This document shows, piece after piece, positions 599-2,716 of a DNA stretch of 31,991 bases; within the stretch, counting starts at the first letter, position 1; the number at the start of each line of letters is the position of its first letter. The notes beneath the pieces were generated by a model. It worked only from the letters and a program-made list of their open reading frames with translations. It did no database searches and was not told where the DNA came from. The position numbers and the translations under genes are program-made. The stretch comes from a virus (taxonomy: Duplodnaviria; Heunggongvirae; Uroviricota; Caudoviricetes), in IMG/VR virus record IMGVR_UViG_2563366883_000019, positions 1-31,991 of that record. The stretch is one strand, 5' to 3'.

Positions 599-2716
599 TC
601 AGTATGCGCGCTGGAACAGCCCGATGCTTTCATTATCATTTGTCGACGTAATTTCATTACACACCATCCATGACCCCGGAACTGAGGATAGTCTGCCGTC
701 AATGCCATCGGTGTTAGCTTTTATATAGTTTCCGTTTTCGTCTTTGATTAGGGCGCATCGCTTAAGGCGTGAACCCGATACAGTTTCTCCTGGCTGATAG
801 GTTCTGCCGATGTCGGTTGTATACGGGACTAGTGCGGCAATAATGTATGTTCCGATGCTGTAAATTTCCCCGGGTACCAGCCTTCCGGTTGGCCCTTGTG
901 GTCCCTGTGGTCCGGTTTTACCATCCACCCCGGGCGGTCCCATCGGCCCTCGCCCTCCGGCAGGGCCCTGTGGCCCCGTTTTACCCGCAGGACCTGCCGG
1001 ACCAACCGGCCCCGGAACACCCTGTGCCCCCGCTGGTCCCCTTTCACCTCGTGGCCCTGCCGGACCTGCCTTACCTTCCGCTCCGGCGGTACCATCCTTT
1101 CCTGCGGGGCCTGCCGGGCCTGCATCACCTTTGGGACCAGCTGCACCAGCCGGTCCCCGTGGGCCTGCGGGCCCCACTGCTCCCGCAGGTCCTGTCGCCC
1201 CCTGCAGCCCACGGAGGCCCTGCTCACCTTTCTGTCCTGCAGGTCCCTGAGGTCCGGGTTCACCGCGCTCACCTTTCGGACCTGTGGGACCTGCCGGTCC
1301 TTGCTCGCCCCTGTCACCTTTCGGTCCAGGTATGCTTTCTCCCGACGGGCGGGTTGTCGCAACCTCTTCTGCCTTCTGTTTCGCTGCCCTGGCCTCATCC
1401 ATAGCCGCCTTCACAGCTTTCGGTGTGGCTGCCTTCGTTTCATCATCACTGTCCGTTGCGCTGCTTAACTGCACAATTCCCTTCTGTGCCGTCGTCGCAT
1501 CTGCCACATTTGCTGCGCTGCCCGCCGGGCCTGGCTCCCCACGAGGTCCCTGAGGTCCGGCTTCGCCTCGTTCACCTTTCGGACCTGCCGGACCCGGTTC
1601 ACCTCTCTCTCCGGCGGGGCCCTGTAATCCTTGCGGACCACGTTCCCCGGGTTCCCCTTTCGGCCCCGCAGGTCCGGTCTCACCGCGCTCTCCCTTTGCT
1701 CCTGCCGGCCCCGGCTCACCTCTCGGACCAGTATCCCCCTTTGGTCCCTGAGGCCCCCCCGGGTCTCCTTTTTCGCCTCTGGCCCCGGTTTCACCACGCG
1801 GCCCCATTGCTCCCTGTGGCCCGGTCGCACCACGTGGGCCAGATGGCCCTGTTGCGCCAGCTGGCCCCTGTACTCCCTGAGGTCCCCGTTCTCCTGTATC
1901 ACCTTTCTGGCCCGGTATGCCCTGAGGTCCGCGCTCTCCCTGCTCACCTTTCTCCCCACGCGGACCCGCCGGACCTGTTTCACCACGAGGACCAGCATCA
2001 CCTTTCGGCCCTGTATCGCCTTTAGGTCCTCGTGCATTCTCAGCCATACGTCTGGCTTCTTCAGCACTAACCGTAGCAGCCTCAGCACGTTTAAGAACGT
2101 CTCCGGCGGCCTCCTGAGCCACTCTGGCGGTTTCAGCATGTTGTCTGGCCTCTTTCGCGTCTGCTGCCGCTGCCTTTTCAGACTCACCTGCCCGGGTCGC
2201 CGCCTCTGCAGCCTCACTAGCTTTTTGTGCAGACTCCGTCGCTTTGCTGGTCGCAGCCTTCGCGCTTTCTGATGCAGTCTTCGCACTGGCAGCAGCGCTT
2301 TCCTTCGACTGTGAAGCCTGATTATTTTTCACCGCCGTGTCTTCGTTCAGACGACGAATCGTGGCAAGGTCATCCGCCACATTGTTCTGTATCTGCCGGA
2401 AATCTGTCAGCAGTTCTCCGGGTATGCTCACCTCAACAAGACTGCGGCGTAACAGCATATTGAGCGTCACCGTACTTTCAGTCCCCTCAATACGCACACG
2501 TCCGTAGACAGCAGTCTTCCCTCTCACCGTCACTGAAACCGCATACTCCCCCGGCTCCATCGTCATGCCGTAATAGCCTGTTGACGTGGTGACTGCCGAC
2601 GCGCTGGTGCCACTGAGTGCATCCGGTGAAACAGTCAGCGCCGTCAGCGTAATGTTCGCATCTGATACAACCTGACCATCAGGCGATTTCAGCGTCCCCG
2701 AAACAACAACACTCAC
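599..2716 (-). CDS. stf: Side tail fibre protein with collagen-like Gly-X-Y repeat blocks (Stf-like, 705 aa)
   Basis: N-terminus resembles the lambda Stf N-terminal domain. Two long Gly-X-Y blocks are separated by a [29 protein letters not shown] motif, which matches the lambda Stf tail-fibre repeat. Start is GTG at 2714-2716 with GGAGGT 5 nt upstream; the GTG overlaps the TGA of the upstream gene (GTGA). Confidence 0.85.

Follow-up and report, generated by a model that had tools for sequence, protein, structure and literature searches.

Collagen-like fibres of Escherichia coli prophages have been described as the EPcl proteins (architecture: Ghosh 2012, PMC3368898). In the EPclB type (Z1483, ECs1228, Stx2 phage I ORF-13), the domains follow the order PfN, PCoil, Col, Pf2, Col, a G-X-P-G-G-P-X-G interruption is conserved in the first Col of the family, and lengths differ by multiples of 3 in Col and by multiples of 7 in PCoil. 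CD signatures of collagen and of coiled coil (PCoil data included), as well as trimers, are available for EPcl proteins, and a triple helix for EPclA/EPclB (PMC3368898). Sp5 ORF67 (ECs1228) is essential, and immuno-gold labelling puts it at the tail (PMC5155283). Trimers of phi24B gp61 form the six lateral fibres on the adaptor gp62, with a coiled coil from residue 100 and a collagen shaft at residues 243–567 (bioRxiv 10.64898/2026.04.10.717836). The architecture, the virion location and the idea of modular recombination are already published; the allele described here is a novel patchwork.

We analysed a prophage sequence of 31,991 nt (IMG/VR record IMGVR_UViG_2563366883_000019, hereafter the window), which is 98.2% identical to phage PhiR5_2 over 87% of its first 25 kb and shows 87–95% identity with Stx phages, among them relatives of 933W (Sepvirinae/Traversvirus). 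A literature search on PhiR5_2 returned nothing relevant. The window encodes a P22-like portal, a Phage_capsid_3/N4-gp56-type capsid and an SU10-type adaptor directly before the fibre, together with a SASA esterase; no stx genes and no tRNA genes were found in it. The genes at the fibre locus are as follows.

2713..3363, minus strand: tail adaptor gene, 216 aa, upstream of the fibre (PF24175 SU10_adaptor, E=8.5e-32)
2714..2727, minus strand: translation start of the fibre (GTG at 2716-2714, Shine-Dalgarno GGAGG at 2727-2723, 6-nt spacer)
599..2716, minus strand: complete coding sequence of the putative lateral tail fibre (705 aa, GTG start, TGA stop at 601-599; from ORF list and translation)
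1..582, minus strand: DUF4376 gene downstream of the fibre (193 aa, counted from the ATG at 582-580, GGAG 6 nt before it, another ATG at 588, stop at 3-1)

Tail genes beyond the DUF4376 gene fall outside the window. The adaptor is 89% identical to 933W L0120 and corresponds by gene order to phi24B gp62. The fibre gene lies at the same locus, right after the adaptor, and has the same GTG start as 933W L0121, Sp5 ORF67 and phi24B gp61, of which it is, judged by sequence and gene order, the positional orthologue. We are confident, short of certainty, that the product of this gene is the lateral tail fibre, presumably trimeric, of an stx-negative, 933W/phi24B-like short-tailed lambdoid prophage, and that the collagen-coding DNA of the gene serves as a crossover substrate. 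The protein belongs to PHROG 366 'tail fiber protein' (E=1.2e-172), and its orthologues carry the database annotation tail fiber protein. An exact-sequence look-up did not find the 705-aa protein in a collection of 15 billion proteins.

The gene is a single ORF free of internal stops. Its GTG overlaps the stop of the adaptor gene (TGA at 2715-2713) as ATGTGA, which suggests translational coupling of the fibre to the adaptor gene. The frame opens one codon before the GTG, with an in-frame TGA two codons upstream of it, and the next possible start is an ATG at codon 51. Similarity to homologues begins at residue 1, RefSeq orthologues are annotated with the same start, and a GTG is present in 63 of the 63 loci that could be read from residue 1 (60 IMG/VR loci plus L001, L003 and L004; L053 was left out of this count, since the match there began at residue 7). 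The GTG start proposed in the original prediction is well supported. Substitutions at codon positions 1, 2 and 3 number 14/16/43 relative to L001 and 7/7/28 relative to L008, and this enrichment at position 3 indicates that the frame is under selection.

The domains of the fibre, from N- to C-terminus, are listed below.

2417..2716, minus strand: N-terminal beta-sandwich anchor, PfN / CarboxypepD_reg-like, aa 1-100 (PF13620 at aa 5-85; PF08400)
2030..2416, minus strand: PCoil, an Ala/Ser/Glu/Lys-rich heptad region, aa 101-229 (21-nt, i.e. 7-aa, tandem period at 2220-2284; aligns with the L0121 PCoil)
1514..2029, minus strand: collagen block 1, aa 230-401 (31 + 26 Gly-X-Y triplets, 172 residues; run counting and Pfam Collagen)
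1745..1768, minus strand: register break GDPGGPQG, aa 317-324 (one-residue shift inside block 1)
1328..1513, minus strand: non-collagen knob, aa 402-463 (Phage_fiber_2 at aa 408-449, i.e. 1370-1495, plus a short helical stretch)
878..1327, minus strand: collagen block 2, aa 464-613 (50 uninterrupted Gly-X-Y triplets, 150 residues)
602..877, minus strand: C-terminal tip, aa 614-705, 92 residues (presumed receptor-binding and trimerising domain, non-PfC)

This order is that of the EPclB type, as the original prediction had recognized in assigning the gene to the collagen-like fibres of E. coli prophages, and here too the Col blocks differ from those of relatives by multiples of 3 and the PCoil by a multiple of 7. 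The N-terminal ~229 residues align almost identically with 933W L0121 (residues 1–120 being near-identical), the one indel in the PCoil making it 14 residues (two heptads) shorter than in 933W. The Pf2 knob is nearly identical as well, whereas DNA identity to 933W L0121, Sp5 ORF67 and phi24B gp61 drops off once the collagen blocks are entered, and this fibre's tip shows no relationship to theirs. PF08400 (phage_tail_N) scores 33.0 bits against a cut-off of 26.6 when aa 1-229 are scanned alone, and 17.1 bits with the full-length protein. Scanning species-representative genomes with the N-terminal 229 aa confirmed nothing.

Two Gly-X-Y blocks were predicted, both uninterrupted, of about 180 and about 140 residues. 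Both exist, with sizes of 172 and 150 residues, and the second is indeed continuous; block 1 consists of two runs (aa 230-322, 31 triplets; aa 324-401, 26 triplets; 57 in all) separated at the family's conserved break, and the one-residue gap is identical in every relative that has two runs in block 1. Pfam Collagen (PF01391) matches the fibre with E=1.9e-49, and matches to PDB collagen chains reach E values down to 2e-89. Among the 107 triplets, Pro occupies X in 50, an acidic residue occupies X in 29 and a basic residue occupies Y in 33, and the blocks are predicted to form a triple helix. The fibre repeat of lambda-Stf type that they were said to flank is a single copy of Phage_fiber_2 (PF03406, E=3.3e-18) lying between them; like the Collagen match, it is much too strong to be due to chance. 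A PDB search with the full fibre matched only collagens, BclA and the Pf2 segment of phage Mu tail fibre protein S (PDB 5yvq, 8ju3; fibre aa 402-448 to S residues 107-153, E=1.7e-6); unlike this fibre, Mu S has no collagen, carries another tip and belongs to a myovirus. The original prediction did not mention the coiled-coil segment (130 residues, rich in Ala/Ser), the 92-aa tip of non-PfC type or the DUF4376 partner gene.

Repeat number varies widely among the relatives of this fibre: 51 complete relatives have 29 different lengths, from 22 to 107 triplets, and at least 10 tip types, and the allele studied here shares the highest count (107) with L053. Every indel within a collagen block spans a multiple of 3 residues. 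Block 1b of the 933W lineage comes with 9, 20 or 31 triplets, and the step of 11 triplets is as long as the 99-bp 'a+b' unit in the AP004402 annotation. From runs of informative sites and segment differences, we located two points inside collagen-coding DNA where the nearest relative changes, and one segment that is present in only some alleles.

1703..1732, minus strand: proximal switch, aa 329-338, from L068/L002 type to L001 type, immediately beyond the register break
1157..1183, minus strand: distal switch, aa 512-520, return to L068/L002 type, inside block 2
1070..1123, minus strand: 18-residue (54-nt) segment, aa 532-549, in this allele and L002/L068, absent from L001/L011

Between the switches (aa 338-512), the allele matches L001 at 276 of 277 informative sites, and beyond them (aa 520-600) it matches L068 at 79 of 81. 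The L001 and L068 alleles co-reside in one genome, that of E. coli UCPROB-002, in two prophages whose portal and capsid proteins are identical. Block 2 holds the majority of the crossover points and indels that were observed. Similarity to the Stf-position gene of the siphovirus Escherichia phage PhiR5_1 begins near the distal switch (gene nt 1534), and identity to GER2 and H4-H6 ends farther distal (gene nt 1591-1612, aa 531-538). From inside block 2 onward, the distal cassette is 93% identical in DNA to that PhiR5_1 gene and its assembly gene. On these alignments the allele reads as a recombinant patchwork with both joins in collagen-coding DNA and with L001 and L068 as candidate parents, the breakpoints being ones that may shift with the repeat alignment. 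Many prophage fibre genes have this collagen-coding DNA in common, an imperfect repeat with a period of 9 bp, and it serves as a crossover substrate both for in-frame changes in triplet number and for the exchange of distal cassettes between phages, including between a podovirus-type fibre and a true lambda-type Stf. The recombination-driven length variation that had been anticipated is borne out; its framing as a matter of length was too narrow, since cassettes of tip plus partner gene are also exchanged whole.

Could replication slippage inside a single gene copy account for all the length differences, without any exchange between phages? Short direct repeats do border the 18-residue indel (it is flanked by the imperfect direct repeat GCAGGyCCGGCAGGsCC, and a 9-nt tandem repeat lies at 1101-1123), and the 99-bp steps of the 933W lineage (9, 20, 31 triplets) fit slippage or unequal sister exchange. 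However, blocks of 80–175 codons switch nearest relative, and nucleotide divergence is 20–35% to one side of a switch but no more than 1% to the other. Tips are also replaced as a whole, together with segments of the partner gene. Slippage has no means of bringing in diverged sequence; as the sole mechanism it is contradicted and we rate it improbable, while it likely contributes to the small in-frame indels. A DGR or phase variation was dropped as a source because the variation is block-wise, not site-wise; no reverse transcriptase was found among the Pfam matches in the window.

The tip sets this fibre apart from the EPclB type, as its C-terminus has no PfC (PF06820) and resembles the non-PfC EPclC/EPclD classes of PMC3368898. 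PF06820 had no match in the tip at E≤10, with L0121 (4.9e-35) and L0122 (1.2e-35) as controls. Tips 92–95% identical to this one were found in 8 of 50,697 phage records, and in a whole-library HMMER search all close tip homologues were at least 87% identical, from E. coli wherever a source was named. Ten weak tip matches were rejected as homologues (at least four matched stretches each, most in proteins above 750 aa), and their Pfam matches gave the impression of artefacts of repeats or composition. Of the 11 database tip homologues, no fewer than six are named as partial proteins by their source, and the collagen repeat may break short-read assemblies. An AF2 monomer model of the tip (10 close homologues, mean pLDDT 42.8, pTM 0.30) was set aside as too poor for a fold search.

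The gene downstream encodes a DUF4376 protein (PF14301, E=1.5e-18; PHROG 1141), in place of the small PfC-like ORF L0122 of 933W. Its counterparts in PhiR5_1 and PhiR5_2 are annotated 'tail fiber assembly protein', and its N-terminal ~70 aa change in step with the fibre tip; by gene order, database names and this co-variation, it is presumed to be the assembly partner of the tip. The search for a lambda Tfa-type assembly protein gave none, the downstream protein matching only DUF4376 at E≤0.01, and the same protein had no match in the PDB. Four other tips associated with DUF4376 match no Pfam family, and a five-tip profile reached only E=0.2 against the PDB, the best match being the extreme C-terminus of Pa193 gp47. 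All shared tip motifs align in that C-terminus, a segment not modelled in the structure, and we regard it as a lead only. A bolder reading, which we take as an even call, has two parts. The Col repeats would be universal splice sites through which lambdoid phages of different tail types (podovirus lateral fibre and siphovirus Stf) trade a self-contained cassette of Col2 end, tip and DUF4376 N-terminus, and the 92-aa tip would be a member of a small-tip family not yet described. That family would be marked by the C-terminal motifs VGxY, PGSxL, PGxW and G[LI]FxR[AIV][AY] and by an apparent pairing with DUF4376 partners, and would extend perhaps to Pseudomonas Pbunavirus fibres.

BamA (YaeT) is the proposed receptor of short-tailed Stx phages, and Smith et al. 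2007, as cited in PMC3368898, PMC5155283 and the phi24B preprint, held this fibre family responsible for recognizing it, which would make the fibre the primary receptor-binding protein and the tip a BamA binder. The tip here, however, bears no relation to the PfC tips found in 933W and phi24B, so the attribution does not transfer to it; moreover, the authors of the phi24B cryo-EM study consider gp61 an unlikely BamA binder, noting that a lambda-type phage with the related fibre does not use BamA. We consider BamA binding by this tip unlikely, a little more so than slippage as the only mechanism.

The original prediction called the gene product stf, and several points speak for a genuine lambda-type Stf, encoded at the stf locus and attached to the tail tip of a siphovirus with a long tail: the Phage_fiber_2 repeat, the weak PF08400 membership, and the strong lambda-type N-termini (PF08400, E about 1e-42) of the tip-bearing proteins P0012 and P0014. 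The distal third of the fibre (distal block 2 and tip) and the DUF4376 gene are 93% identical in DNA and about 95% in protein to the gene at the true stf position of PhiR5_1 (PV340545; 523 aa, after J and lom) and its assembly gene, and the Pf2 repeat occurs in both fibres. These parts are the only ones that match. Over aa 1-90 the PhiR5_1 Stf has a lambda-type N-terminus that is 31% identical to that of this fibre, which is instead nearly identical to 933W L0121; it also has no PCoil, shorter collagen and a long-tailed virion. The window holds no J, lom, tape-measure or tail-tube genes, and the gene stands right after a podovirus adaptor, within a cluster of 933W type, so it is not at the lambda stf locus; the stf reading is very unlikely. 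Least probable of all is a collagen-like adhesin, secreted or on the bacterial surface, encoded as prophage cargo and acting on the animal host outside the virion (as streptococcal Scl or Bacillus BclA), which the long collagen-like blocks, the similarity to animal collagens and BclA and the early discussion of EHEC collagen-like proteins as a virulence matter (PMC3368898) might suggest, but against which stand the apparent translational coupling to the adaptor gene within a late structural operon, the phage-fibre N-terminal anchor, the Pf2 repeat, the tip partner gene and the presence of orthologues on the tail by immuno-EM and cryo-EM.

As the lateral fibre of a short-tailed phage, the protein would work as follows. 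By analogy with its orthologues, three chains would make one fibre and six fibres would surround the short tail. The domain at aa 1-100 would dock on the second adaptor ring, the product of the gene directly upstream and its probable partner, a role described for the N-terminal domain in the cryo-EM study of phi24B gp61 (bioRxiv 10.64898/2026.04.10.717836). [quoted passage not shown] This long, flexible shaft would bear the 92-residue tip, which would make the first contact with the cell surface, and the DUF4376 protein probably helps the tip to fold or trimerise, or remains bound to it.

Long shadow ORFs on the triplet repeat had also been noted, and seven are listed.

829..2286, both strands: span of the seven shadow ORFs, 89-273 aa, in other frames (non-coding artefacts)
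829..1398 and 1465..2286, minus strand: shadow ORFs (ORF list)
847..1404, 896..1468, 1284..1553, 1423..2025 and 1631..2272, plus strand: shadow ORFs (ORF list)

They are artefacts of composition: the share of T does not exceed 5% at codon position 1 or 2, and because it is nearly absent there, alternative frames stay open (four of the five have only 2–5 stops in 1152 nt, as compared to 6–31 in a control gene of 1215 nt). Equivalent shadow ORFs are deposited as CDS in AP004402, so that ORFs of this kind, having reached the databases, call for caution wherever collagen-coding DNA is annotated.

The finding opens no new question. It corrects a mislabel, the gene being a podovirus lateral fibre and not lambda stf, and it provides a clean natural case of host-range tail-fibre modules moving between co-resident prophages with an in-frame repeat as the joint, which bears on how Stx-type phages gain new hosts.

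The fibre gene (599-2716, minus strand) is a single ORF of 705 codons, and a search of the ORF listing and translation for a frame interruption found no internal stop. The GTG start that had been proposed (2716-2714) is secure, because the frame opens after an in-frame TGA one codon before the GTG, with the next start codon being an ATG at codon 51; GGAGG lies 6 nt upstream; the GTG and the stop of the upstream gene overlap as ATGTGA; alignments with relatives and with Pfam models start at residue 1; GTG is used in 63 out of 63 related loci readable from residue 1; and RefSeq annotates the identical start in orthologues. 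We divided the protein into the following domains.

Domains of the 705-aa fibre protein
aa 1-100: Anchor, a beta-sandwich domain, CarboxypepD_reg-like (PF08400, 33 bits if scanned alone)
aa 101-229: PCoil, a heptad segment rich in Ala/Ser/Glu/Lys with a 21-nt period and a two-heptad indel relative to 933W
aa 230-401: Col1, collagen block 1 (Gly-X-Y run counting)
aa 402-463: Knob, a spacer with the Pf2 repeat (Pfam)
aa 464-613: Col2, collagen block 2 (Gly-X-Y run counting)
aa 614-705: Tip, a C-terminal domain of 92 residues without a Pfam family

Pfam recovers both expected families, Collagen (E=1.9e-49) and Phage_fiber_2 (E=3.3e-18, aa 408-449). The original prediction of two long uninterrupted collagen blocks of about 180 and about 140 residues holds for their presence and approximate size (172 and 150 residues), but Col1 is broken: we counted 31 triplets (aa 230-322) and 26 triplets (aa 324-401) on the two sides of a single register shift at GDPGGPQG, the conserved G-X-P-G-G-P-X-G break of the family (PMC3368898), and 50 triplets in Col2 (aa 464-613). 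Pro occupies the X position in 50 of the 107 triplets, and X is often acidic and Y often basic. Such a composition is typical of those bacterial and phage collagens that lack hydroxyproline. A 51-nt direct repeat has one copy at the start of Col2 (1241-1291) and another, 88% identical, at the end of Col1 (1544-1594), and recombination between the two would remove the Pf2 knob in frame. Some related loci have a single long Col without Pf2, e.g. L015 (49 + 50 triplets) and L038 (32 + 69 triplets).

Other genes discussed here are as follows.

Genes flanking the fibre and in the early region
582 to 1 (ending exactly at window position 1), minus strand: DUF4376 gene, 19 nt past the fibre stop codon
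2713-3363: SU10-type tail adaptor gene, immediately upstream of the fibre (Pfam)
23153-23861, plus strand: HigB-like (Gp49/DUF891) and HTH-antitoxin gene pair, early region
25584-26087, plus strand: IS1 transposase ORF, early region (PF03400, E=5.9e-78)
26434-30267, plus strand: recombination module of RecE/Exonuc_VIII-like (690 aa), RecT (261 aa) and YqaJ-like exonuclease (226 aa)

Farther upstream of the adaptor are virion structural genes, a Phage_capsid_3/N4-gp56-type capsid gene, a P22-type portal and terminase. Escherichia phage PhiR5_2 is 98.2% identical to the window across 87% of the first 25 kb (its equivalents of the toxin-antitoxin-like pair are annotated HigB/HigA), and Stx-converting phages share 87–95% identity across large parts. 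The fibre locus is common to 933W and Stx2 phage I (classified as Sepvirinae/Traversvirus): the 933W fibre L0121 is the positional orthologue, with a near-identical Pf2 knob and N-terminal ~229 residues, and the 933W adaptor L0120 is 89% identical to that of the window. The protein belongs to a podovirus prophage of the 933W/phi24B type, as the lateral fibre of its short tail, and the literal 'stf' label is therefore off, while the E. coli prophage collagen-like architecture that came with it stands. An orthologue of lambda stf, which follows J and lom among the genes of a lambda-type long tail, was rejected given the 933W-type cluster, the adaptor upstream and the L0121 orthology. No tRNA genes were found in the prophage, and no stx-sized ORF was found from the region upstream of the esterase to the lysis genes (16698-18117), which is where 933W-type Stx phages have stx and tRNA genes; the prophage is therefore an stx-negative relative of Stx phages; the SASA/NanS-p-type esterase (14694-16697) is present.

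By analogy with its orthologues, the window fibre would work as a trimeric, adaptor-docked lateral fibre. With textbook axial rises per residue (coiled coil, 0.148 nm; collagen helix, 0.286 nm), we predict a fibre length of about 115–120 nm, made up of segments of ~19, 49 and 43 nm and of three small globules, the 933W fibre being ~12 nm shorter by the same estimate. Among the orthologues, Sp5 ORF67 is essential and was placed at the tail by immuno-gold (PMC5155283), and phi24B has six lateral fibres, each a gp61 trimer with a coiled coil starting at residue 100, in which two of the three N-terminal beta-sandwiches bind the gp62 adaptor (bioRxiv 10.64898/2026.04.10.717836). EPcl proteins are trimers with CD spectra of collagen and coiled-coil type (PMC3368898). 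Since the window tip is unrelated to the 933W-type tip, the attribution of BamA as receptor of 933W-type fibres does not transfer to this fibre; the phi24B authors doubt it even for gp61 (bioRxiv 10.64898/2026.04.10.717836).

Length variation, anticipated from the repeat, is extensive: 51 complete relatives differ in protein length (29 values), triplet number (22–107) and tip (at least 10 types). Block 1b of the 933W lineage has 9, 20 or 31 triplets, and the 11-triplet step equals in size the 99-bp 'a+b' unit annotated in AP004402 (arrangements aba' and ababa'). Among alleles with the same tip, all collagen-block indels are multiples of 3 residues, and an imperfect 17-nt direct repeat flanks one 18-residue indel.

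At the DNA level the window allele is mosaic. For aa 1-60, PhiR5_2 is identical and the related loci L001 and L011 differ by 16%; of 277 informative sites in aa 338-512, 276 are as in L001, and of 81 in aa 520-600, 79 are as in L068. Both switch points (aa 329-338 and aa 512-520) fall within collagen-coding DNA. Relatives GER2, H4-H6, L008 and L009 are 97–99.7% identical until gene nt 1591-1616 and diverge completely beyond. E. coli UCPROB-002 (NZ_CM142927.1) has two 933W-like prophages, one with L001 as its fibre gene (4.39 Mb) and one with L068 (5.27–5.31 Mb), and up to 8 matching places are found per E. coli genome; exchange substrates therefore co-reside. The portal protein (WP_032298132.1) and the capsid protein (WP_016232077.1) are the same in both UCPROB-002 prophages, and the fibre alleles are unequal (690 and 662 aa); the early and lysis region of the window (12000-31991) is 99.7% identical to the 5.27–5.31 Mb prophage, and the fibre middle matches the 4.39 Mb one. 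RecE/RecT-type systems use short homologies, and we speculate that the prophage's own recombination module could favour crossovers in the collagen-coding repeats. The exact 705-aa protein was not found in a collection of 15 billion sequences, and full-length matches in 5,426 complete E. coli genomes reach 95.8% at best.

The collagen region also contains the suspected shadow ORFs, seven of 89–273 aa in other frames. They are artefacts: because T is scarce at codon positions 1 and 2 of the collagen blocks (≤5%) and GC is 67%, 4 of the 5 alternative frames have only 2–5 stops in 1152 nt, as compared to 6–31 in a control gene, and substitutions against related loci cluster at third codon positions in the annotated frame. 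In AP004402.1 (L003), shadow ORFs were deposited as CDS (8321-8815 and neighbours, e.g. 'ORF-14; putative collagen alpha 1(III) chain'), and spurious annotations of this sort can propagate in databases.

PfC (PF06820), the usual domain at this place, was not found in the tip at E≤10 (933W controls, ~1e-35). The tip is present in just 8 of 50,697 phage records: two PhiR5_2-like podovirus-type genomes and six genomes of ~51–54 kb. PhiR5_1, the sole one inspected of the six, has it at the C-terminus of a 523-aa protein whose gene follows J and lom, the true stf position, and is itself followed by a matching DUF4376 gene. DNA identity of 93% between PhiR5_1 and the window sets in within Col2, at gene nt 1534, and runs until DUF4376 ends; upstream it is negligible, and the N-terminal anchors share only 31% identity. 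In the protein databases, two further matches (P0012 and P0014) join a window-type tip to strong lambda-type N-termini.

A DUF4376 gene also follows several other tip types, and the tips so followed share weak motifs (VGxY, PGSxL, PGxW and C-terminal G[LI]FxR[AIV][AY]); the tip of L010, for example, is 27% identical to the window tip over 91 aa (pairwise E=4e-5). No DUF4376 gene lies immediately behind PfC-type tips, and tips with a terminal RLNYNG motif are followed by a partial match at most. A five-tip profile aligned end-to-end with the C-terminal 75 residues of gp47, a tail fibre of Pseudomonas phage Pa193 (PDB 9b45 chain 2), all motifs being common (VGSY, PG, GTWR, LFQRV), at an E-value of only 0.2 and in a gp47 region unmodelled in the structure. 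At least 6 of the 11 tip homologues in the databases (P0001-P0011) bear the label 'partial' in their source, and of the unnamed ones several are on contigs <3 kb. This suggests that short-read assemblies break at the collagen repeat, of which a genome has copies in several prophages; full-length alleles would in that case be sampled too sparsely.

Overall, the initial observation was confirmed with small corrections and its interpretation was largely right; how these fibres are built, where they sit on the virion and how they evolve by modules is already published. Particular to this case is a mosaic allele, not catalogued before, with an uncharacterised cassette of tip and DUF4376 gene common to it and true Stf genes. 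In the DUF4376 proteins of the window and of L008, L009, L010, L015, L024, L057 and L063, the first ~70 residues covary with tip type and the DUF4376 domain is conserved, which fits a partner whose N-terminal part may recognise the tip.
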